Shown piece by piece: positions 13,859-24,910 of a DNA stretch of 64,000 bases. The translations under genes were made by a program, and so were the position numbers. Positions within the stretch are counted from its first letter, which is position 1; the number at the start of each line of letters is the position of its first letter. This DNA comes from Promethearchaeota archaeon (lineage in GTDB: Archaea > Asgardarchaeota > Lokiarchaeia > Sigyniarchaeales > SOKP01). Where the stretch lies: positions 96,001 through 160,000 of the forward strand of contig JAUVNS010000007.1 in the NCBI GenBank assembly GCA_030599585.1. Reading direction: 5' to 3'. Under the pieces are notes generated by a model. The model worked only from the letters and a program-made list of their open reading frames with translations. It had not been told where the DNA came from and did no database searches.

Positions 13859-13981
13859 TTTCTTAAATTTTCTATTTCTTTTTTTTTAAAATCGTATTAC
13901 CGTATTAAAACATAACCTTTCTTGGAGTATTAATATTTTTTAGCCAATCACTTTAAATTTGAAAACATTTTATTGAATATT

Positions 13982-14491
13982 ATGAACGAAGAACCGCCAA
14001 GGCCTAGTGGATTACCAGCGGGTTCTATAGCACCTATCTTTGATACTAAAGACATCTACGGAAAAGAAATGAATTTAGAAAACTTGCTTGAAGAATACGA
14101 CGGAGTGCTAATTGATTTCTTTAGAGGAAATTGGTGAAGTCATTGCAAAAAACATTTAACGCTACTAACCGAAAAGATATCCGAATTTAAGAATAGGAAC
14201 ATTAAACTTATGTCAATAGCAAGCGATAGCGAAAGACTTTTAAAGAAATTTAAAGAAGAAAATAATTTTGCTGTTGATATGATCTCTGATCGTGGAGCTA
14301 AAATTGCAAAAGAATACGATGTTTACTGGTTTGCTCCCGGTGGAGGAGGAACTTTGAACGTAAAACAAGCGGTGCCAAGCAAATTTCTGATAAATAAGGA
14401 AAGAAAAATCTTATGGACATACATTGGTAAAGATAAAACCGACAGGCCTTCTATAAAAATGATGACAGACATCATAGACGAAAAAATTTAG
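13982..14491 (+). CDS. Peroxiredoxin-like (AhpC/TSA, thioredoxin fold) selenoprotein, UxxC, 169 aa
   Basis: ATG 13982 is in frame with track ORF 14210; a single TGA (14135-14137) falls in DFFRGNW-U-SHC where CxxC is expected; 3' SECIS-like element. Confidence 0.9.
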
Positions 14492-14498
14492 ATTTTAG

Positions 14499-14571
14499 AA
14501 TCCCTTAAGAATGAATCGTGCGTGAAAATTTTAGACAAACGAGGACGAACCTCGCAAAGGTTTATGGGATT
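14499..14571 (+). ncRNA. Eukaryote-type SECIS-like element (cis RNA structure) plus adjacent hairpin
   Basis: ATGA(14511)-ATCGTGCGT-GAAAATTTTAG-ACAAACGAG-GA, then AACCT-CGCAA-AGGTT; homologous to 24331-24387. Confidence 0.8.
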
Positions 14572-14858
14572 TATTTATTTTCTTTTTGATTGTGGGAATT
14601 TTATTCATAAGAAATAATAGAAAGAAAAGGTAGGAATATTTCTACGCCAACTTGAATTTCTTGAAAAATTGACTTCTTTTAGATGCATCTAATACTTCGA
14701 GTAAACAGATTTACAAATATGTCACATTATTTTAATTGCTCAATAAGTATATAAGTATATATTCAAGTTTAACTCCAATGAATAATAATCAACAAAAATT
14801 CTTTCAATAAATTTTAATTTACAAATCAAAAAAAAAAATATGAATTCTATAAGGAGAT

Positions 14859-16160
14859 TTGATTAAAATGGTAGAAAAAAAAACCGCTTGGTATGAAACA
14901 CCTGTAATTAAGGATATGATGGCTTTAGTTGGGGGTAGAGCTCTAAGAGCCGTAATGTCAACCTTTTGCTCGTCCAAAACATATCAGGGTAAATCAGCAC
15001 TACTAAGAGTTGCTCGATATTTAGAAGCTTCTCTTGATAAACAAGAAAGAAGAGCGTTAATAATAACAGACTCGTTTACTCAAAAATTTACTAAAAAGAT
15101 AACTAGCTACCTGGATTTAATTGAAATGGAATATAAAATATGGTCTGGAGCAATACCAGAAGTGCCAATCTCAACAATCTATGAAGGGGCTAAAATATGC
15201 GAAGAGTTTAAGCCACAAGTATTAATCGCATTAGGAGGCGGTAGCGTCATGGATACAGCAAAAATGGTAATGGTCAAATACGAAAAACCTGAAATAAATT
15301 TGATGATGATTTTGCCGTATTTCGGTTCTCTGGGATTACGAAAGAAAATGAAATATTTTATAGCAATTCCTACGACATCTGGGACGGGTTCCGAGGTAAC
15401 TCAAGCAGCCGTAATTACAGATACCGATAGAGAACCGCCTAAAAAACTTGTAGTGTTGAGCGACGAGATATATGCTGATATTACGATTTTATTTACAGAT
15501 TTTGTTAAAGACATGCCTCCATTTCTAACAATGGCCACAGGTTTAGACGCTCTTTCTCACGCTTTGGGGAGTTACATTTCAAATTGGGGTAGCCCATATA
15601 GTGACGCCATGAATTCGACTGCGATAAAAGAAGTCGTAAAATACCTTCCACGTGCTTACAAATACGGAGTTAAAGATATAGAAGCTAGAGAACATATGCA
15701 AATGGCTGCACTAATGGCAGGAATTGGATTTGGAAATACAACAGCGGGAATAGACCATGCGTTAGGACATAGTTTCGGGAAAATATTTGGGGTACATCAC
15801 GGAATATGTGTCGGATTGTTCGCCCCTTATTCTATTGCTTTTCAAGCAAAAGTTACCGATAGATGGAGAGCCTTATGCCCAATTTTCAATGTTAAAGATG
15901 AAAACAAGGGTAGAGATGAATTATACAAAGAATTTCTTCAAGCCGTCAAGAATTTTATAGTCTCACTTGATGGTCCTGTATGCGTAAAAGATTTGAAAGA
16001 TCCTGTTATTAGCAAAGAAGATTATTTCTCAAAACTAGATTTATTAGCAGAATATGCTGACGACGACGCAGTATCTCTAACTTCTTTTCGTACAATTAAT
16101 AGAAAGCTATATAAAACCATCTTTGAATACGCGTGGGATGGAAAAGATATTGATTTTTAA
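14859..16160 (+). CDS. Iron-containing alcohol dehydrogenase (likely start ATG 14868)
   Basis: GGGSVMDTAK, IPTTSGTGSE, DALSH, HALGH..HHG. Confidence 0.9.
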   Translation: MIKMVEKKTAWYETPVIKDMMALVGGRALRAVMSTFCSSKTYQGKSALLRVARYLEASLDKQERRALIITDSFTQKFTKKITSYLDLIEMEYKIWSGAIPEVPISTIYEGAKICEEFKPQVLIALGGGSVMDTAKMVMVKYEKPEINLMMILPYFGSLGLRKKMKYFIAIPTTSGTGSEVTQAAVITDTDREPPKKLVVLSDEIYADITILFTDFVKDMPPFLTMATGLDALSHALGSYISNWGSPYSDAMNSTAIKEVVKYLPRAYKYGVKDIEAREHMQMAALMAGIGFGNTTAGIDHALGHSFGKIFGVHHGICVGLFAPYSIAFQAKVTDRWRALCPIFNVKDENKGRDELYKEFLQAVKNFIVSLDGPVCVKDLKDPVISKEDYFSKLDLLAEYADDDAVSLTSFRTINRKLYKTIFEYAWDGKDIDF

Positions 16161-16175
16161 TATGGAGGGAAAAAG

Positions 16176-18050
16176 ATGAGTGAAAATTTATTTGGTTATA
16201 ATGGAAAAATTGCTTATGTGAATTTAACAGACCAAACTGTCGATGTTAAAGATCTGGATGCTCAAGTTGCAAAGCAATATCTTGGTGGTACGGGACTAAG
16301 CGCTAAAATAACTTACGACCTTCTATCAAAAAATGATTACGACACCTTGAAAAAAGACGCTTTTTCAGATATTAATCCATTAATATTTGCGACGGGTCCT
16401 GTTACAGGAACAATAAGGCCGTCCTCCGGAAGGTACACCGTAACAGCGATATCACCCCTTACAGGGATATGGGGTGAAGGCTCTTCTGGGGGATTTTTTT
16501 GTATTCCTTTACATAATAGTGGCTTCGATGCTATAGTTATTGTTGGGAAAGCAAAAAGTCCTATCTATCTATATGTCCACGATGAAACCATTGAATTCAA
16601 AGGTGGAGATGTTGTTTGGGGTAAAGACACGTACGAAACCCAATTAATATTGAAAAAAGAGCTAAACAACGAAAAGATTCGGGTTGCCACTATCGGTATT
16701 GCCGGTGAAAATTTAGTGAAATACGCTGGAATAATTAATGACGAAGGTCGAGCTATAGGGAGATGTGGTTTAGGTGCTGTAATGGGTTCAAAAAACTTAA
16801 AAGCAATTGCAGTTCACGGAACTAAAAAAATCCAAATCGCAGATAATAAAATAGGCAAAGAATTGTTAAAAGAAGCAGAAGATGCAAAGAGAGGAGACCT
16901 CCTTAAATCAATAACGCCTTTTTTATTCACTTTATATGGTACAAACTGCTATTTAGATATAGGTATGGCTCTCGGTGACACACCAGCACATTATTTTACT
17001 AGGAACGAATTTTTCGCTGAAAAATTAACGGGGAAAACATTACGAGAAGAATATCCTATTTTGGACTACGGTTGCGCGGGCTGTACTATGAGATGTGGTA
17101 AAACAACAATTATAGAACACGAGGGCAAAGAAATCGAAGTAGATGGGCCAGAATACGAGTCTGTTGCGGCATTTGGACCTTTATGTGGCGTTAATGATTC
17201 CAAAGAAGTAATTCTCTCGCATCATATGTGTAACATATATGGTTTTGACACTATTTCTGGAGGCGTATCTATCGCATTTTTGATTTACTTAGTTGAAAAC
17301 AATTTAGGGATTGAAAAAATTAAGTCGTATCTAAAAGATATTGAAATCGGAGAAATAAAGTGGGGAAATGGAAATTTACTTTTAAAACTAATTGATAAAA
17401 TTGCGAAAAAAGAAGGCATAGGAAACGTACTTTCTGAGGGTGTACGCACCATGGCAAAAGAATTTGAAGTCGATCCTGAATTAGCAGCGCATGTAAAAGG
17501 TTTAGAAATGCCAATGCACGATCCAAGAGCTTTTGCTGGACAAGCTTTAAGTTATATTACTTGTTACGTGGGAGCGAGTCACGAAAAATGCGATTGGTTT
17601 AGCGCTGAAATGGGAAATGTTGCATACCCGAAAATACGAATAAAATCTGGTGATAGAACTTCCATAAAAGGTAGAGAAAAGGGAGTTATTGCCCTACAAA
17701 ACATTAGGGCGATAGATGATTCCGCTGTAAATTGTAACTTCCTAAACCCCTCACTTGAACACATAATTAAACACATCAACGCAGCAACGGGCTTTGATTA
17801 CAGTAAAAAATCTTTATTGCTTGTTGGGGAACGAATAAATACTCTTAAAAGACTTATTATATGCAATCTAGGGATAACAAGAGAAGACGATAAATTACCG
17901 GGGCATCTTAATAAAGTATTAAAGTCTGGTAAAACAGAAGGGGTAAAGTTAGACTTAGATGGGAGCTTAAGGAAATATTATAAAATTCGTGGTTGGGATT
18001 GGGAGACTGGTCGACCAACAAAAGAGAAACTTGAAGAACTAAATATTTAA
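16176..18050 (+). CDS. aor: Tungsten aldehyde:ferredoxin oxidoreductase family
   Basis: GRCGLGAVMGSKNLKAI, CAGCTMRC, GPEYE, HDPRA. Confidence 0.9.
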   Translation: MSENLFGYNGKIAYVNLTDQTVDVKDLDAQVAKQYLGGTGLSAKITYDLLSKNDYDTLKKDAFSDINPLIFATGPVTGTIRPSSGRYTVTAISPLTGIWGEGSSGGFFCIPLHNSGFDAIVIVGKAKSPIYLYVHDETIEFKGGDVVWGKDTYETQLILKKELNNEKIRVATIGIAGENLVKYAGIINDEGRAIGRCGLGAVMGSKNLKAIAVHGTKKIQIADNKIGKELLKEAEDAKRGDLLKSITPFLFTLYGTNCYLDIGMALGDTPAHYFTRNEFFAEKLTGKTLREEYPILDYGCAGCTMRCGKTTIIEHEGKEIEVDGPEYESVAAFGPLCGVNDSKEVILSHHMCNIYGFDTISGGVSIAFLIYLVENNLGIEKIKSYLKDIEIGEIKWGNGNLLLKLIDKIAKKEGIGNVLSEGVRTMAKEFEVDPELAAHVKGLEMPMHDPRAFAGQALSYITCYVGASHEKCDWFSAEMGNVAYPKIRIKSGDRTSIKGREKGVIALQNIRAIDDSAVNCNFLNPSLEHIIKHINAATGFDYSKKSLLLVGERINTLKRLIICNLGITREDDKLPGHLNKVLKSGKTEGVKLDLDGSLRKYYKIRGWDWETGRPTKEKLEELNI

Positions 18051-18090
18051 TTAGCTTTTATTTTTTTTTATTTAGCATATAATTTAATTT

Positions 18091-19194
18091 TCATTCAATA
18101 GAACAAATTAATTCTTCTTTGTATCCGATAATTACTTTAGTAAGTCCTTTTAACAAATTATCAATTTCATCATCGCCCGTATCAACTCTCAAGCATTTTA
18201 GACTCTTTATTTTATCTTCAGTTCCTATGATTAGAATATTATTTTTTTCTACTCTTCTTAAAATTTTCGGTGTAAACTGTTTGTTGCCTCTTCCAAATAC
18301 GAATCCCTGTCCTCCTATAGGTGTTACAATGATTTTAACTTTCTGATATTTACTTAGCAATTCAACTATCCCGCTTTCATTTAAATCTTCACCAACTAGT
18401 GCTTTATTATAAATAGCGTCAACACCAAGTAAGGTTTTATCTAGATTTAACTGGTCCGTAATCGATTTAACAGTCGTGCCGGGTCCTAATAAATATAGTG
18501 TTCCTTCTTCCATAGTTTCATTTATCTGCTGAGCTATCTCGTACTTGTTTTCATCAATAGTCCTTCCAACCTTGGAGCTATCTTTAGCGTTCTGGGTAAG
18601 GTTCTGAAATTTTGGAACTTTTAAATAACCATATAATTTAGAAACTAATCGATTATCTCTAAACGCATCTTCGTCGATATCCAGAACTTCTTTTTCTTGC
18701 GTATCTACCGTTTCTTCTATAAATTTATCTACAATTTGAGCAGCTGCTTTTGGATTTAGCGCAAATACGGAGCTGAACATTTTCACTCCGGATGGAATTG
18801 CAACCACAGGTATTTTTAATTCAATTGCATCAAATATATCTCTAGCCGTTCCATCACCCCCACAAAAGATAAGCAATTCAACTTGTTCTTCCAACATGAG
18901 TTTTGCAATTCTTTTTGTATCCTCTGCCGTCGTCTGTTGTTGGATATGACCAATGACTTCATATCTAAAACCTTTACCACTTACTAACTCTTCTCCCATT
19001 TTTCCGGGTGCAACCAATAAAAAAATTTCATCTCTCGATTCGATATGACTTAAAAATGCCTCTATTCTATTAGCAACGACTGGTAATGCTCCTAATCTAA
19101 GAGCCTCTTTAAATACCTCTCCATCTGTTCCTTTTAGCCCTACACTACCGCCCATTCCTGCGATTGGATTTGCTATAAGTCCAATTCTTTTCAT
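18091..19194 (-). CDS. ATP-NAD kinase family protein
   Basis: NPIAGMGGSVGLKGTDG, GGDGTARD, GQGFVFGRGN. Confidence 0.85.
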   Translation of the reverse strand: MKRIGLIANPIAGMGGSVGLKGTDGEVFKEALRLGALPVVANRIEAFLSHIESRDEIFLLVAPGKMGEELVSGKGFRYEVIGHIQQQTTAEDTKRIAKLMLEEQVELLIFCGGDGTARDIFDAIELKIPVVAIPSGVKMFSSVFALNPKAAAQIVDKFIEETVDTQEKEVLDIDEDAFRDNRLVSKLYGYLKVPKFQNLTQNAKDSSKVGRTIDENKYEIAQQINETMEEGTLYLLGPGTTVKSITDQLNLDKTLLGVDAIYNKALVGEDLNESGIVELLSKYQKVKIIVTPIGGQGFVFGRGNKQFTPKILRRVEKNNILIIGTEDKIKSLKCLRVDTGDDEIDNLLKGLTKVIIGYKEELICSIE

Positions 19195-19409
19195 ATTGAT
19201 ATTTTCTCTTTAAATTTGGTGTGGTTTTTTCTATTATGATTTGAATTTAGAATTTTATTTCCAATTTCAAACAATATAACTTAGCATTAATTATTTTTAT
19301 AATTTTGAAAAAAATAATGAGAAGATTTATTCTTTGTAAAAACTTCATCAAAGAATTTGGGGGGAATTTAATAAAATGATTTTTCTATATTTAATCTTTA
19401 ATTTGTGAG

Positions 19410-19601
19410 TTAACTTTTCAGTTTATCATAGCAGTTTTGGCAGAAAAATATTTTTCGCCCTTTTGAAATATCCTTTACCATATAACCTTTCTTATGCGCA
19501 GTCTCACAACCCCAGCACAGCTTAGTAATATGGGTATCAACGACATGATATTCTTTTACATCAAATTTATCTCCTTTTATGAATTCCTTATAACTTAGCA
19601 A
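19410..19601 (-). CDS. Small zinc-finger-like protein
   Basis: CWGC..CQNC in 63 aa. Confidence 0.55.
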   Translation of the reverse strand: MLSYKEFIKGDKFDVKEYHVVDTHITKLCWGCETAHKKGYMVKDISKGRKIFFCQNCYDKLKS

Positions 19602-19949
19602 TATTTAGCTCAACTTTAGTTTTTATAATATCGAATGAGTTTTTGAATAATCATTCAATATCTTTTATTATTTGAATAGAATCATATGAGATATTTAAGT
19701 ATTATGAGTGCGTATTCAAATAGCAGTAAGAAGGTGTAGAGCTATTTCATGAATATTTTAAATAAATTATATTAATGAAAACGAAGAAACTAGATTTTTT
19801 AATTAAGAGTTTTAGGTTTTTTTAACATATCAGATAAGGTTTAGTAGAAAGCAGCTAAATTAATTGTAAGAATTTTATGAAGATACCTATGAATTTTTCG
19901 TTTCGATAAATTAGTTAAAAAAAAAAAGTGTTAGAATTTATTTATGGTT

Positions 19950-20573
19950 TTATTTTTCCATGTATATTTTCAAGTAGGATACTCCACCGAATACATATGG
20001 GATTCCAGCATAAGCCCACCCTCCGTCCTCCCAAACTCCTCCATACTCACCATCAGGTGTTAGATACTCACCAGTAGGACTTACCAGCATAGCAATGGTT
20101 ACCGGGATAAATTTACCTCCTGTATTGGGCAAGGTTATAGATTGACCTCGATATTCAAAATTTTCGATAATTGTATCTGTAGTTTTAACCATTCCTTCGC
20201 CCATGACAAGCCAAATGTTAGTCCATATGATGTTCCGCACAGGGCAGTAGTGATATGGAATTACCTGAACAGCCCCATCTTTGAGCATTCCCTTTATTGT
20301 ATAAACTTTATCACCTGATTCATCATAGATTTGTGTTTGGAAATTAAAATGTCCGGAAGATTCACCGCTGACTTTATCGAACTCAATTGCTCCTACGATA
20401 GAAGTTTTAGCTCCAGGAACATCTATGTCATCGCCCTTAGATAGAATAAAGATGTTACTAGAATCAGTAGCTTTTACAGATGTAGCAAATGATATGATAG
20501 TTGTAAGAAACAATGACATTACTAGTACCAAAATCACTTTCGGAAATAATTTTGCTCTATTAATTTTGCTCAA
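19950..20573 (-). CDS. Secreted hypothetical protein, paralog of 29467-30174
   Basis: Signal peptide (..VKA); shared blocks KGDD.D, IYDESG, YCP, MGEG.VKTTD, TLPNTGGK. Confidence 0.75.
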   Translation of the reverse strand: MSKINRAKLFPKVILVLVMSLFLTTIISFATSVKATDSSNIFILSKGDDIDVPGAKTSIVGAIEFDKVSGESSGHFNFQTQIYDESGDKVYTIKGMLKDGAVQVIPYHYCPVRNIIWTNIWLVMGEGMVKTTDTIIENFEYRGQSITLPNTGGKFIPVTIAMLVSPTGEYLTPDGEYGGVWEDGGWAYAGIPYVFGGVSYLKIYMEK

Positions 20574-20915
20574 CTCTTATTTTTGGTTGATTTCTTTTTA
20601 AAAAGATTCCAACCCTCTATTTAATTCTCTCTCAATTACTAAAATCACAGATTTTTAGTAAATTTGTTAATTTTAATTCAAATTGAGTTATCAAATTATG
20701 TGGGACGGTTCATATTTAAATATTACTATTAATTTAAATATCTAAAATTATGATGTAAATCTATATTTGATAACATGTAACCCATTTATTCGAATGTAGA
20801 TAGACCGTTTTATTTAAATTAAACTTAAATATATGACATGCTTATTTATAAATGGAAAAAGAGATATTCGATATTTCCATAATTATTTTATAGAATTTTA
20901 TGAGCTGTAAATGGG

Positions 20916-21719
20916 TTGTCTGAAAAAAAATATCGCGAAACTATTGCAGAAAAGATAGAAGTGGATGAAAACAAACAGTTTGTTATAAATCTACCTAATG
21001 GAGAACAAATATATGTTGAGTTAAACGACAAAGAGATTGATACCGTAGAAAATTGGTTTTCTTTATTTGGTAAACATAATTTAAGATTCGACATTTGGAA
21101 TATTTTACAAATATTTGAGGAAGCTAATGTAACTCAAATTAGCAGCATGGTAGAACAAAGTAAATCGACCGTGGCCAGACATCTCAATCTGATGGAAAGC
21201 GATGGTCTTATTTTATCAAGGAAATCTGATAAAACTCAACAAGGAAAAATACCTCCAAAACTATTTAGAGTAAACAGTAAGTTAGTTCAAGTAGTCGAGA
21301 ATAGCCCCGTAAATAAACCACCCCCCGACGATCCTTTAGAATTAATTGAATTCTATAAAAAAGAAATTCAAACCTATCGAGCATCTATTTATAGGTATAG
21401 ACTTTTACTTGATTCACTTGTTCCGTTGTTAGACGATTTAGAAGATCACCTTGATGATGTTGATGCCGCTAAAGATATTTATGAAAAATATTTCAATTTT
21501 ACTAGATTAACACCTTGGTTTGGTTTTTGCCACTTTAGCGATAAATATTATGAGCAATTCATGGATGCATATACTGAACATACACAAAAGCGTTTACAAT
21601 TATTATCAGTTCAAAATAATGATCCTGAGGTTAAAGAAAGAGAATATACTTATATCACCGCAATTTTGCCATTGAAAGCCCTAATTGAAATTTATCGGCG
21701 AAAATTGAAAGAAGAATAA
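20916..21719 (+). CDS. ArsR-like winged-helix transcriptional regulator
   Basis: NVTQISSMVEQSKSTVARHLNLME..GLI. Confidence 0.75.
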   Translation: MSEKKYRETIAEKIEVDENKQFVINLPNGEQIYVELNDKEIDTVENWFSLFGKHNLRFDIWNILQIFEEANVTQISSMVEQSKSTVARHLNLMESDGLILSRKSDKTQQGKIPPKLFRVNSKLVQVVENSPVNKPPPDDPLELIEFYKKEIQTYRASIYRYRLLLDSLVPLLDDLEDHLDDVDAAKDIYEKYFNFTRLTPWFGFCHFSDKYYEQFMDAYTEHTQKRLQLLSVQNNDPEVKEREYTYITAILPLKALIEIYRRKLKEE

Positions 21720-21847
21720 TCACTGTTTTGTCTAAATTGAGTGTCGTCATTTAAAAAAAAAAATAAAATAAAATAACTTATGTTAATTTAAAAAATAAAA
21801 AAAAATTATACTAAATACAATAAATCAAATTAGGTTAAAGATTAAAA

Positions 21848-22321
21848 ATGGCTCAAAATTTTAAATTTAATTTAGGGAATTTAAAAATAGATCAAATGAG
21901 TTTTGTTTACAAGGACATTAAAAAACAGGCAAAAAAAATGGAGCAGATATATAGTATTCCTACTTTCGCCCAGATGGAAAATATTACTCATCAAGAAGCT
22001 ACCTATCGCGGGAAAGAAGTAACAATCATAATAGATTATGCGTTTAGTCGTCTACTTAACATACAAATTGAACTTCAGCAGTGGAAAAGTGGAGATTCTC
22101 TTTTTAAAGAATTCATAGATCAAGGAAAAGAAGGACTTCATAGTATAGGTGTATATGTAGAGGATCTAGATGCATATATTGATGAATTCAAGAAAAGAGG
22201 GATTGAAGTATTACAAACTGGTCAAATTGGTAAACAAAAATTTGTTTATTTAGACACCAAACAAACTTTTGGTGTTTTATTAGAAATATCAACAACAGTG
22301 AAGCGACGAAGAAAAAAATAA
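21848..22321 (+). CDS. VOC family (methylmalonyl-CoA epimerase/glyoxalase-like)
   Basis: IDQMSFVYKD, QIEL, EGLHSIG, YLDT..GVLLE. Confidence 0.8.
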   Translation: MAQNFKFNLGNLKIDQMSFVYKDIKKQAKKMEQIYSIPTFAQMENITHQEATYRGKEVTIIIDYAFSRLLNIQIELQQWKSGDSLFKEFIDQGKEGLHSIGVYVEDLDAYIDEFKKRGIEVLQTGQIGKQKFVYLDTKQTFGVLLEISTTVKRRRKK

Positions 22322-22402
22322 AGTGTCTGTCAAACCTTAATCAATAATTTTGATGTTTTTTTCTTAGTTATCCTTTTTAAATTTAAAAAAAAGAAATGGA
22401 AA

Positions 22403-23257
22403 CTAAATTTTTCTTCCTGTTTTTCGCCTTGCTCTTTTATAAAGTCTATCTAATACACCACGCATATCATCTGGGTTCGCTCTCATATCTTTTATTTGAA
22501 TAGCGGCTTCACCTGGTAAAATTTCAAAACTTCCTTCTAAAATACTTTGAATAAATTCATTAGCTACTTCCTCTGCCGTCATAAGTGTACCTGAATCTGA
22601 AATTATTTTGCATTCTTGTGGCTTAATCCTATTTTCTTCAGCAAAACCGGGAGTTTCAGTATCTACAGGAAAAAGGATTGAGACTTTGATATTATAGGGT
22701 AATAATTCGTGTCGTAATACTTCTGCTAAGCCAAAAATAGCATATTTACTTGGACAATAAGTTGTAAAGCCCATAATTGCCATAAATCCCATAACTGAAG
22801 AAGTAAATGTAATATATCCTTGTTTACACTCTAAAAAATAGGGTAATACAATAAGAGTAGGAACTAACTGACCATAATAATTTATATCCATGTTTCTTTT
22901 AAAGTCTTCAAGAGCCAATTGTTCAAGATATTGCGCATAAGCATAACCTACGAAATTAAATAGATAATCTGGAACTTTATGTTTATTAATAACATCTGTT
23001 ATAAGTGGTTTTAATTTATCCATATCTGTAGTATCGCAGGAAATAATCTCTACAAATTGTGATGCGTCTGATTTTAACTTATAACATTCCTCTTGAGTTT
23101 TATTTAATGCATCAATTCCTCTCGCTATAATACAGATACTCCCTCCTAATTGAATAAATAACTTTGCTGTAGCTTTCCCCATCCCTTTGGAACCACCGGG
23201 AATTATCGCGAACTTTCCTTTAAAGGGTTGTTGAGCTATTAATTCTTCATTCACCAT
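22403..23257 (-). CDS. SDR oxidoreductase, 3-ketodihydrosphingosine reductase (KDSR)-like
   Basis: GGSKGMG, YCPSK, FPVDTETPGFAEENRIKP. Confidence 0.75.
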   Translation of the reverse strand: MVNEELIAQQPFKGKFAIIPGGSKGMGKATAKLFIQLGGSICIIARGIDALNKTQEECYKLKSDASQFVEIISCDTTDMDKLKPLITDVINKHKVPDYLFNFVGYAYAQYLEQLALEDFKRNMDINYYGQLVPTLIVLPYFLECKQGYITFTSSVMGFMAIMGFTTYCPSKYAIFGLAEVLRHELLPYNIKVSILFPVDTETPGFAEENRIKPQECKIISDSGTLMTAEEVANEFIQSILEGSFEILPGEAAIQIKDMRANPDDMRGVLDRLYKRARRKTGRKI

Positions 23258-23368
23258 TTTAAATCAATTATATTTATATTCATTTCAATTTAAAACTTAA
23301 TATTTAAGCTTTAAAGATGGTTCTTGATTCTTATGAAGTTAAAATAAAAAAAAAGAATAATCAATCTT

Positions 23369-24190
23369 TTAGTATTCAACCTCTTTTAGCTTATGAGGTG
23401 GGACACCAACATCAGCAGTTCCGCCGTCAATAGGAAAACAATGACCTGTAATATAATTTGAAGCAGGTGATGCTAAAAATACAACTACATTTACTACATC
23501 TTCAACCGTTCCAATTCTGACTTGAGGAATTTTAACTTTACCATCTCTCATCGTGACTCTCATCGCTTCCTCGTCGTCTAAATATACACCCGTGACGTGA
23601 AATCCCGGAGCTATTGAATTTACGGTAATATTTGGAGCTAAACTTTTTGCTAATAGTTGAGTTAATGCTATAATCCCCGCTTTTGTAATGCTGTATGCTG
23701 GAATCATGGGATCGACAACCATTCCAGCTGTAGAAGCTGTATTTATCATCCTACCCGCTAATTCTTCTCCTTCAAATTTTTGAGCTTTCATTTTTCTCCA
23801 TAGTGATTTGGCGACCAGCCACTGACCTTTGAGATTCACGTCCATAATCCTGTCCCAATCATCTTCTTTTACTCTACAGATATTTCTCCCGTAACTCACT
23901 CCAATTCCAGCGTTATTGAATAGGACAAACACATTTTCTAATTCTTTAAACGCTTGTTTTGCCATCGCTTCAACTTGATCGGATTTTGAAACATCACAAA
24001 TAAGAGGTATGACGGTTCTTCCAGTTTTTTTTCTTATTTTTTCAGCAGTATCTTCAAGTAGCTGTTGATTTATGTCGACTAATACCAAGTTTGCACCTTG
24101 TTCTGCGAAAGCATAAGCCACTCCTCTCCCAAATCCGCTAGCCCCTCCGGTGATTAGAGCCCCCTTTCCTTCTAGAAACTTTTCAACCAT
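23369..24190 (-). CDS. SDR oxidoreductase, FabG-like
   Basis: TGGASGFG, NNAG, YSITK. Confidence 0.9.
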   Translation of the reverse strand: MVEKFLEGKGALITGGASGFGRGVAYAFAEQGANLVLVDINQQLLEDTAEKIRKKTGRTVIPLICDVSKSDQVEAMAKQAFKELENVFVLFNNAGIGVSYGRNICRVKEDDWDRIMDVNLKGQWLVAKSLWRKMKAQKFEGEELAGRMINTASTAGMVVDPMIPAYSITKAGIIALTQLLAKSLAPNITVNSIAPGFHVTGVYLDDEEAMRVTMRDGKVKIPQVRIGTVEDVVNVVVFLASPASNYITGHCFPIDGGTADVGVPPHKLKEVEY

Positions 24191-24330
24191 ATTATTTCAT
24201 TTTTTTATTTTATTTTATATGTTTTATTTTGTCTTTCTTTCCTTTATATTTTTAATTCTAGGAATAGTTACAAAAAGAAGATAAATAGGACAATCAAAAT
24301 TATTAATTTCTATAAAATAGATGTATACAT

Positions 24331-24387
24331 AGAAACCCGAGCAGGGTAGTCCTCAAACGTCTAGATTTTATACGCTTGAATCATTCA
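24331..24387 (-). ncRNA. Eukaryote-type SECIS-like element plus adjacent hairpin
   Basis: Minus strand: ATGA(24384)-TTCAAGCGT-ATAAAATCTAG-ACGTTTGAG-GA, then ACCC-TGCTC-GGGT. Confidence 0.85.
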
Positions 24388-24403
24388 ATTTTTATTTTTG
24401 AAA

Positions 24404-24910
24404 TTAATTTGGTAAATGAGTATCAATCGCATTTAGAATATCTTCAATTTTTGGTCTATCTGTTTTAGTACCGATATACCGCCACACGATTTTACCATTT
24501 GGATCTATTAAGTAAGTTGAAGGGATTGCGAGCTCGCTTTTAATTATATCGTAATCTATTGGAATTCCAAAGACATTATAATCTTTTGAAATCTTTGCTT
24601 GTTCGTCTGCTATAATTGAGAACTTATAGTTTTCCTTATCGGCAAGCTTTTTTAAAGGTCTTACTCTATCCGTTCCGATCGATACAAATTTTACATTTCT
24701 CATTTCAATGTCAGAAATATTACTATTTAGTTTTTTTAGTTGTTTCTTTCAATAGTGTCACCAAGCACCTCGGAAAAAATCGATTAATAATCCACGATAT
24801 TCTTGAAGAATGTCTGTTAAATTAATTTTTTCTCCATGAATATCAACACTATCAATCATTGGTGCCTTGCTTCCTGTCTTTAAACCTTTTTCAGAATTTG
24901 AGACAGTCAT
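24404..24910 (-). CDS. Peroxiredoxin-like selenoprotein with UxxU motif, 168 aa
   Basis: ATG 24910 is in frame with track ORF 24703; TGA at codons 51 and 54 (24760-24758, 24751-24749) in DFFRGAW-U-HY-U-KKQL; paralog of 13982-14491; 3' SECIS. Confidence 0.88.

Follow-up and report, generated by a model that had tools for sequence, protein, structure and literature searches.

The SECIS elements of Asgard archaea are the main argument for an archaeal descent of eukaryotic selenocysteine decoding, and roughly 1,200 Asgard eSECIS-like elements have been published. The lokiSECIS is the type I eSECIS-like element of this group (Mariotti et al. 2016, PMC4989117; Huang et al. 2024, PMC11227280). The published lokiSECIS model consists of a core, an upper stem and an apical loop, to which Huang et al. 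2024 (PMC11227280) add an internal loop and a lower stem. The window analysed here, 64,000 nucleotides of a Promethearchaeota archaeon (contig JAUVNS010000007.1), holds two elements that share with the lokiSECIS the AUGA, the 9-bp stem, the 11-nt loop with its A-rich start and terminal AG, and the GA(C). They lie, like the lokiSECIS, just 3' of the coding sequence, and follow the same genes, PrxL with UxxC and PrxL with UxxU; here too, euryarchaeal, bacterial and eukaryotic SECIS tools give no match. The window elements differ in having a hairpin between the GA and the lower stem, which would make the whole a three-way junction. Neither the hairpin nor the junction is mentioned in the main texts of PMC4989117 and PMC11227280, to which our comparison was confined.

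The two PrxL genes and their SECIS cores

The features of the two sites are as follows, P1 being the closing helix, P2 the SECIS stem and P3 the additional hairpin.

13973..14491, + strand: site-1 PrxL gene, a Prx-like (AhpC/TSA-fold) selenoprotein; ORF read with TGA as U; redox box U-S-H-C (UxxC)
14496-14574, + strand: whole element, site 1
14498..14504, + strand: P1 5' strand, GAAUCCC
14511..14545, + strand: SECIS core, site 1, whose sequence fits the published lokiSECIS description
14511-14514, + strand: AUGA
14515-14523, + strand: P2 5' strand
14524-14534, + strand: apical loop, 11 nt, GAAAAUUUUAG
14535-14543, + strand: P2 3' strand
14544-14545, + strand: GA
14547..14563, + strand: P3, (G)AACCU-CGCAA-AGGUU(U), one nt (C14546) past the GA; the loop holds GCAA
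14566..14572, + strand: P1 3' strand, GGGAUUU, followed by a T-rich tract, 14573-14588
24404..24910, - strand: site-2 PrxL gene, a Prx-like selenoprotein; redox box U-H-Y-U (UxxU)
24323-24401, - strand: whole element, site 2
24350..24384, - strand: SECIS core, site 2
24384-24381, - strand: AUGA
24380-24372, - strand: P2 5' strand
24371-24361, - strand: apical loop, 11 nt, AUAAAAUCUAG
24360-24352, - strand: P2 3' strand
24351-24350, - strand: GA
24335..24347, - strand: P3, ACCC-UGCUC-GGGU, two nt (CU) past the GA

The site-1 protein (Pfam AhpC-TSA, 9e-22) has its Sec codon, TGA 14135-14137, in the motif WUSHC at the Sec position of the aligned orthologues, and ends at TAG 14489-14491; the gene corresponds to PrxL.2 of Mariotti 2016 (PMC4989117). 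The site-2 protein (Pfam AhpC-TSA, 3.6e-25) has two Sec TGA codons, 24760-24758 and 24751-24749, in the motif WUHYU, and ends at TAA 24406-24404. Its gene has UxxU orthologues at loci L072, L073, L075, L077 and L078, and corresponds to PrxL.1 of the same study. The two proteins are thioredoxin-fold paralogues, 45% identical, and the in-frame UGA is conserved among PrxL orthologues. Standard gene callers would truncate both genes at their UGA codons. ARAGORN found no tRNA, tRNA-Sec included, in the window.

The cores have a common layout of AUGA, nine stem positions, an 11-nt loop, nine stem positions, GA and C, with the GAC 3' of the stem at 14544-14546 and 24351-24349 and with loops that start A-rich and end in AG. 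P2 pairs at 9/9 positions at site 2; at site 1 the pairing is weak, 6/9, with a terminal A.G and internal G.A/C.A, and is stronger in the orthologues. Covariance model R1, trained on orthologues from other genomes only, finds site 1 at 56 bits (E 5e-11) and site 2 at 49 bits (E 4e-9) genome-wide, with noise from E ~4, and model R2 scores the sites at 65 and 64.5 bits. The RNAfold z-scores of the single window sequences are weak (-1.4 and -1.6). RNAfold takes no account of G.A pairs and mismatches, and for that reason its result on the bare core (44-45 nt) of site 1 (z = 0.08) is uninformative. The Rfam SECIS families gave no match around either site, whether at gathering score or at E <= 10. 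A permissive Rfam search returned snoRNA and lncRNA family matches only, which are noise.

The initial annotation had described both elements as eukaryote-like (Lokiarchaeota-type) SECIS behind UGA-containing genes, and the WUSHC and WUHYU motifs and the match to the lokiSECIS description bear this out. Compared by sequence, both folds are the lokiSECIS already published for PrxL.2 and PrxL.1 (Mariotti 2016, PMC4989117), and the core is therefore already known. The range assigned to the pair, 14499-24387, includes both elements, along with about 10 kb of unrelated genes between them. At both sites the AUGA does begin 19 nt after the stop codon (TAG 14489-14491 to 14511, + strand; TAA 24406-24404 to 24384, - strand), as had been read, and the fixed distance had been put forward as a possible property of the element. 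Is the spacing significant? Among PrxL orthologues (72 loci) the AUGA lies about -4, 2, 5, 6, 10-15 or 18-20 nt from the stop, the distance of about -4 nt arising where AUGA itself supplies the stop codon with its UGA. In the closest orthologues (96% identical) the distance is 12 nt, and across the 15 SECIS of this genome it varies between overlap and 39 nt. The shared spacing is a coincidence, and the distance to the stop codon would seem to be free, apart from being short.

The third arm and the closing helix

The second hairpins that had been noted are present, AACCU-CGCAA-AGGUU at 14548-14562 on the + strand and ACCC-UGCUC-GGGU at 24347-24335 on the - strand, and hairpins of this type recur well beyond the window. 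A P3-type hairpin is found in 14/14 scored SECIS of this genome (the 12 matches of model R2 plus two selD elements), versus 5% of 3' UTR controls and 8% of random positions, and starts 1-6 nt past the GA irrespective of the gene. P1 reaches at least 7 bp in 10/14 of the scored elements versus 0.5% of controls, and a fifteenth SECIS of the genome, behind the fourth VhuD, has both P3 and P1. P3 lies between the GA-C and the P1 3' strand in 13/15 elements of the genome, and the same holds elsewhere for the majority of PrxL and selD elements. At site 1 P1 is clear, with 7 bp (GAAUCCC/GGGAUUU). At site 2 no convincing P1 helix is detectable, and in the UxxU clade P1 is reduced to 4-5 A-U pairs or absent; the junction is therefore not closed everywhere. 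The initial annotation had overlooked P1, the helix by which the whole becomes a three-way junction.

The alignments speak for all three helices. In 90 elements, 89% of cells are paired versus 34-57% in slid controls, with compensatory changes in 22/22 pairs, although elements within one gene family share descent, so that these counts overstate independent events. A cross-family set (n=42) gives 89.6% paired versus 35-47% slid; alignments A4-A6 were fitted to the covariance model, by which the modelled pairs are favoured. The same three helices come out of RNAalifold, and for several sequences taken singly the junction is found by plain RNAfold as well. A MAFFT alignment of the genome's own elements (A1) could not carry P1 and P3, as its length differences fell inside the helices, and the gapless seed A3, of 20 equal-length orthologues, was used instead. 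The P3 loop holds a GNRA sequence in 60/90 and 28/42 elements versus ~5% expected. Central C-G pairs of P3 are near-invariant in type I elements (39/42 and 37/42 rows), which is sequence conservation and not proof of pairing.

How specific is the structure? Model R2 gives 12 matches in the 4.85-Mb genome at E <= 5.5e-5, the next standing at E = 1.7. They lie behind PrxL (two), HdrA, VhuD (three), VhuU, two small membrane ORFs, a 156-aa ORF, a 36-aa ORF ending TGA-TAG, and an ORF of ~305 aa whose N-terminal TGA is kept in 28/30 family genomes. All 12 follow an ORF with a conserved in-frame UGA. Every one of 25/25 same-family genomes has matches, 2-11 each. Outside the training set altogether are the type II SECIS of selD. 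In this genome they have P1 helices CGAUG/CAUCG and UGAUG/CAUCA and the P3 stem CCGU/ACGG, and P1 and P3 also appear in the selD elements of other Asgard families, at least four in number (f7, f13, f16 and f19), where for f19 and some other selD loci the assignment rests on direct reading of the UTRs. P3 stems of the other-family selD elements are GCUGC/GCAGC, GCCGC/GCGGC, GCUACU/AGUAGC, UCCGC/GCGGA, AGCCAG/CUGGCU and CCACC/GGUGG. A relaxed regular-expression scan gave 191 matches, mostly spurious. The three-helix pattern scan gave 76 matches versus 35 in the shuffled genome, so that patterns alone are weak; it recovered one true element that the covariance-model pre-filter had skipped. The profile TIGR01911 (HesB-like selenoprotein) had no match in this genome.

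These data show the three helices to be conserved, covarying pairings. They are present in practically all of the SECIS sampled here, as well as in the selD elements of other families, and the three-armed fold marks only UGA-containing genes. The covariation claimed for the main stem (P2) is supported by both the 90-element and the cross-family alignments, and the second hairpin has become what had been suspected, a SECIS feature that is conserved and covaries across the Asgard archaea, in PrxL orthologues and in selD of other families. On this comparative evidence P3 is to be regarded as a real, conserved third arm, and P1, the SECIS stem and P3 as a predicted three-way junction.

Possible roles of the third arm

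We consider it probable that each window element is a functional Lokiarchaeota-type SECIS with a larger, three-armed fold, in which P3 belongs to the recoding signal as an integral arm. The 3' UTR element would direct the in-frame UGA codon or codons upstream, some 350 nt away, to selenocysteine. Read 5' to 3', the fold would start with the P1 5' strand and a strand of 5-10 nt ending in AU, followed by G.A/A.G; where the 9-bp P2 with its 11-nt A-rich loop begins, the AUGA...GA would form the core of a kink turn, and the return strand would supply the GA-C, the short G+C-rich P3, in most cases capped by an N-GNRA loop, and last the 3' strand of P1. P3 may stack on P1, in the way that the T helix of a k-junction stacks on its C helix, thereby fixing the kink and the direction in which P2 points, and may in addition serve as a recognition surface. 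A switch, in which the P1 5' strand pairs instead with the P3 3' strand, was rejected, as the alternative pairing extends over no more than 3 bp in PrxL and other families lack it.

One might think, instead, that P3 serves mainly for the docking of a protein, either a putative SECIS-binding factor standing in for SBP2 or archaeal SelB/EFSec, and is not an architectural strut. SBP2 is reported absent from Asgard archaea, and no SBP2-type (L7Ae-domain) partner was found in this genome, where a search with PF01248 gave only two L7Ae-family genes of 134 aa each. The almost invariant C-G core of type I P3 arms, with their GNRA-enriched loops, is a sequence constraint that exceeds the needs of a plain spacer helix. 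The P3 arms of selD and other families are however quite different in sequence (CCGU/ACGG, GCUGC/GCAGC, CCACC/GGUGG), and one VhuD element has a reversed AUGG/CCAU, which makes a single sequence-specific reader unlikely. We hold docking as the chief role to be possible, and rather doubtful.

Another possibility is that P3 and the U-rich tract that follows form a termination hairpin, or one protecting the 3' end, that merely neighbours the SECIS and has no role in recoding. P3 is a short G+C-rich hairpin, several have immediate U runs (GGGUUUCU at site 2; GGGUUUU behind HdrA), and T-rich tracts follow both window elements. Read from sequence, however, the P1 3' strand usually intervenes between P3 and the U run and pairs upstream of the AUGA, and P3 is therefore internal to the fold. 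Moreover P3 starts at a fixed 1-6 nt past the GA for any gene, the selD P3 of family f7 is followed by CGGUCUC and not by U, and such hairpins stand behind only 5% of the ordinary long ORFs of the genome. Archaeal termination requires oligo-T and is not known to need a hairpin. A terminator is improbable. That the two 3' UTRs, second hairpin included, are alike by shared descent of the PrxL paralogues or by chance in an A+T-rich genome can hardly be credited, for although the proteins are 45% identical and the RNAfold z-scores weak, this reading is already contradicted by the cross-family data, in which the same architecture, with unrelated helix sequences, stands behind HdrA, VhuD, VhuU, SelD and several unrelated small ORFs, and every pair shows compensatory changes.

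Comparison with known systems

A conserved third arm changes the structural model of the Asgard SECIS. Current models and search patterns take the element for one hairpin, with or without a lower stem. The third arm gives a more specific detector, by which several ORFs were found in this genome that are missing from the selenoprotein lists of the papers compared, and it is a concrete handle for experiments.

The euryarchaeal SECIS (Methanococcales, Methanopyrus) likewise lie in the 3' UTR near the stop, and the euryarchaeal VhuD SECIS variant shares the AUGA...GAC and an extra lower stem. The window elements differ in lacking the GAA_A bulge and the G-C-rich upper stem, and a third arm is not described for the euryarchaeal elements.

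A topological parallel is the k-junction, a kink turn in which the non-bulged strand carries a third helix, facing the loop (PMC10573300), known from the TPP riboswitch and DUF-3268 (Wang et al. 2014, PMC4005666; Li et al. 2023, PMC10573300). In the Asgard elements, too, the AUGA/GA sequence would allow a tandem G.A/A.G opening one helix, and the third helix lies on the non-bulged strand, after 1-4 linker nt, and abuts the closing helix, site 2 being without P1. The bulged-strand loop is however 5-10 nt versus 3, and the context, an mRNA recoding signal, is unrelated. Because the strand 5' of the G.A is 5-10 nt and not a 3-nt bulge, k-junction geometry is here an analogy from topology only. 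It is conceivable, but in our view unlikely, that Asgard SECIS are natural k-junctions, in which P3 would let the kink fold alone and would exclude the abundant archaeal L7Ae from the mRNA, as published for other k-junctions, allowing recoding without an SBP2-type protein, and that eukaryotes lost the arm when SBP2 took over. If true, P3 would supply the structural intermediate so far missing between the decoding of Sec in archaea and in eukaryotes.

The eukaryotic SECIS (Rfam SECIS_1 and relatives) differ in several respects. The upper helix of the Asgard elements is shorter, and they give no Rfam match even at E = 10; the Asgard element lies within ~40 nt of the stop, in organisms from which SBP2 is not known; and it has a hairpin in place of the 3' side of the internal loop. 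The third arm defines what must have been lost or replaced as the eukaryotic SECIS arose.

The two PrxL genes and their SECIS cores

The genome carrying the window (contig C26:96001-160000; 4.85 Mb and 32.6% G+C for the whole genome) encodes there two proteins whose reading frames become whole only with TGA read as Sec:

13973-14491, + strand: PrxL gene of site 1, 172 aa, motif FFRGNW-U-SH-C, AhpC/TSA fold (Pfam, 9e-22)
24404-24910, - strand: PrxL gene of site 2, 168 aa, motif FFRGAW-U-HY-U, AhpC/TSA fold (Pfam, 3.6e-25)

The two proteins are 45% identical to each other, and the source MAGs of their relatives carry the label Promethearchaeota, as Lokiarchaeota are now called. Two Prx-like genes were named by Mariotti et al. 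(2016; PMC4989117): PrxL.2, which has a single Sec, and PrxL.1, which has Sec at both redox Cys. The pair in the window is this pair. The initial annotation described both 3' UTRs accurately: each stop codon is followed by 19 nt, AUGA, nine stem positions, an 11-nt loop (GAAAAUUUUAG at site 1, AUAAAAUCUAG at site 2), nine stem positions and GA-C. The published lokiSECIS has AUGA ahead of a 9-bp stem, GA behind it, and an 11-nt apical loop that begins A-rich and ends in an ultraconserved G, in most cases with A before it, and lies near the end of the coding sequence (PMC4989117). Huang et al. (2024; PMC11227280) widened this work to more than 400 Asgard genomes with a model of core, upper stem and apical loop, and looked also at an internal loop and lower stem. 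An Rfam search around both sites gave no SECIS match, in parallel with what these authors report for other tools. Both elements are members of this known class, and both genes belong to known families.

The main stem, P2, is paired at 9/9 positions at site 2 and at 6/9 at site 1, where it (14515-14543) contains an internal G.A/C.A mismatch pair; the closest orthologues of site 1 have 7/9 and most PrxL elements 8-9/9. Site 1 may be a weakened signal. In eight PrxL loci of other genomes (L030, L035, L036, L040, L042, L058, L062 and L069) there is another full SECIS hit some 700 nt away on the same strand, downstream of the first in seven and upstream in L069, which suggests tandem PrxL paralogues with one element each.

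Is the shared 19-nt spacing itself a SECIS feature, as had been proposed? The wider sample shows that it is not. Three orthologues of the site 1 gene (96, 96 and 93% protein identity) have 12 nt. Among 72 PrxL loci of other genomes, about thirty have 2 nt between stop and AUGA; 5, 6, 10-15 or 18-20 nt also occur, as does overlap, the stop codon being the UGA of AUGA. The 15 SECIS found in the genome itself include overlap and spacings of 5, 8, 8, 10, 13, 15, 17, 19, 19, 19, 20 and 39 nt. The element must sit close to the stop; the exact distance is free.

A third arm and a closing helix

The second hairpin had also been put forward as an added SECIS feature, and this suggestion holds. In a pattern scan of the genome, nearly every good lokiSECIS has a short G+C-rich hairpin, P3, 1-4 nt past the GA, and the stretch behind P3 pairs with one a few nt 5' of AUGA to form a closing helix, P1. 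At site 1, plain RNAfold recovers this pairing, and it finds the same three-way junction for several other elements:

14498-14504 (GAAUCCC) with 14566-14572 (GGGAUUU), + strand: P1 of site 1

At site 2 and across its UxxU clade, P1 has 4-5 A-U pairs at most, or none. A P3-type hairpin of the same geometry accompanies 14/14 scored SECIS of the genome, against 5% behind ordinary long ORFs and 8% at random positions; 10/14 combine P3 with a P1 of 7 bp or more, against 0.5% of control positions.

Covariance models of the three-helix fold extend this. R1 was built on 20 PrxL-orthologue UTRs, all from other genomes and aligned without gaps, with the structure (P1 8 bp, P2 9 bp, P3 5 bp) set by hand. 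It found eight elements in the genome at E < 0.01, behind differing gene families, with noise from E ~4, and three further elements with filters off. R2, rebuilt on 44 elements, gave 12 hits at E <= 5.5e-5, the next coming only at E = 1.7. Over 90 elements, 89% of pair positions are paired versus 34-57% in slid controls, with compensatory changes at 22/22 pairs; 42 elements of a cross-family set, drawn from this genome and its relatives, give 89.6% versus 35-47%, numbers that are inflated by kinship among the sequences and come from alignments fitted to the model. RNAalifold returns the same three helices. The stronger argument is that P1 and P3 occupy the same places behind unrelated genes, with unrelated sequences.

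The P3 loop contains a GNRA tetranucleotide in 60/90 and 28/42 elements of the model-fitted alignments A4 and A6, versus about 5% expected, and this excess may reflect a tertiary contact. It is mostly a pentaloop N-G-Y-R-A (UGCAA, AGCAA, UGUGA, CGCAA, UGCGA). In type I (lokiSECIS-form) elements the two central C-G pairs of P3 are nearly invariant. The main texts of Mariotti 2016, Huang 2024, Sun 2021 and a 2026 review mention neither the third arm nor the three-way junction, and a full-text literature search on lokiSECIS and on SECIS as a three-way junction returned nothing relevant.

The genes served and the breadth of the fold

Do the hits follow only UGA-containing genes? In this genome all 12 R2 hits lie behind ORFs with an in-frame UGA:

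Known families: PrxL (two), HdrA (2 Sec), VhuD (three), VhuU
Other ORFs: 68-aa membrane ORF (two), 156-aa ORF with UGA-UGA, 36-aa zinc-ribbon ORF, ~305-aa ORF

A fourth VhuD element, missed by the model's pre-filter, carries P3 and P1. Two hits looked like exceptions, those of the zinc-ribbon and ~305-aa ORFs, until an in-frame TGA was found for both. The zinc-ribbon ORF (CxxC...CxxC; locus L085:1361-1474, or contig C26:252298-252411, outside the window) recurs in loci L112, L115 and L126. It ends ...RFK-TGA-TA[AG] in four genomes, with a three-armed SECIS 30-40 nt downstream in each, which suggests a very small candidate selenoprotein whose Sec is C-terminal. The ~305-aa ORF (L097:1582-2508, - strand, contig C41) has no Pfam match. 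Its conserved N-terminus reads ...KIVLKV.FN..LA[A/T]-U-N..GY.MGFS, the in-frame TGA is kept in 28/30 family genomes, and translation appears to start 5-8 nt downstream of GGAGG, at AUA or, in one genome, AUC. Its SECIS (C41:34092-34174, - strand) is type II-like, the apical region being 20 nt long and containing a ministem. The 68-aa predicted membrane ORFs (L093:1298-1501 on contig C21; L083:1306-1509 on contig C34), of no significant Pfam family, have one in-frame TGA apiece (SAUGS; GGGUPSTC), then a three-armed SECIS. The 156-aa ORF (L096:1052-1519, contig C40), also without a Pfam match, has two adjacent TGA codons (HAD-U-U-ADN), and the UGA of AUGA serves as its stop; the SECIS behind it is a weaker one (37 bits) whose P3 is atypical.

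R2 hit all 25 same-family genomes sampled (2-11 hits per genome) and, beyond that family, a few genomes in two others; it is biased to Lokiarchaeial sequences, so this range says little about other lineages. The selD genes carry the known type II SECIS, which lay outside the training set. Two such genes, separated by 1.9 kb, occur in this genome; each has a single Sec codon and a type II SECIS of its own:

C34:187423-188481: first selD gene
C34:190348-191388: second selD gene

Both have P1 and P3; P1 is CGAUG/CAUCG versus UGAUG/CAUCA, a difference of one compensatory pair, and P3 is CCGU-loop-ACGG. As an independent test, we inspected the 3' ends of selD genes that belong to other Asgard families and hold a single in-frame TGA. 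Family f7 has GAGACCG/CGGUCUC as P1, the UGA of [A/G]UGA serves as stop codon, and P3 comes in compensatory variants (GCUGC/GCAGC, GCCGC/GCGGC, GCUACU/AGUAGC, UCCGC/GCGGA, GGCCGU/ACGGCC). The same plan, in other sequences, is seen in families f13, f16 and f19. The third arm therefore spans several Asgard families, beyond the two PrxL genes.

Possible working and likeness to the k-junction

What might the third arm do? One might think of P3 as purely a terminator hairpin. This is unlikely, because P1 encloses P3, several P3 hairpins have no U after them, and few other genes are followed by a hairpin of this kind. We favor instead a scheme in which the mRNA 3' end would fold as a three-way junction, the AUGA/GA core bending P2 away from a P1-P3 stack so that the A-rich P2 loop is shown to the Sec-decoding machinery; UGA codons lying between a few hundred and ~2,000 nt upstream of the element would then be recoded. 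P3 would set the junction geometry; a factor might recognize it as well, or it might exclude L7Ae. Of this scheme, the data establish the helices, their conservation and their association with UGA genes, while the stacking, a part for P3 in recoding and any partner protein are inferred. Only two L7Ae-family genes are present in the genome, so there is no extra candidate for a protein like SBP2, the eukaryotic SECIS-binding protein.

The fold resembles the k-junction, a kink turn in which the non-bulged strand bears an additional helix across from the loop (PMC10573300). In published k-junctions the third helix is stacked on the closing helix, kinking occurs in Mg2+ alone, and archaeal L7Ae does not induce their folding, its site being blocked by the third helix (PMC10573300). 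The Asgard element runs from P1 through a loop ending in AU to the G.A/A.G pairs that open P2, and returns via GA, 1-4 linker nt, P3, 0-2 nt and the P1 3' strand. The topology is thus the same; however, the loop of the Asgard element is 5-10 nt rather than 3 nt. This length falls outside the k-junction definition, and the likeness is therefore one of working like a k-junction, not of membership.
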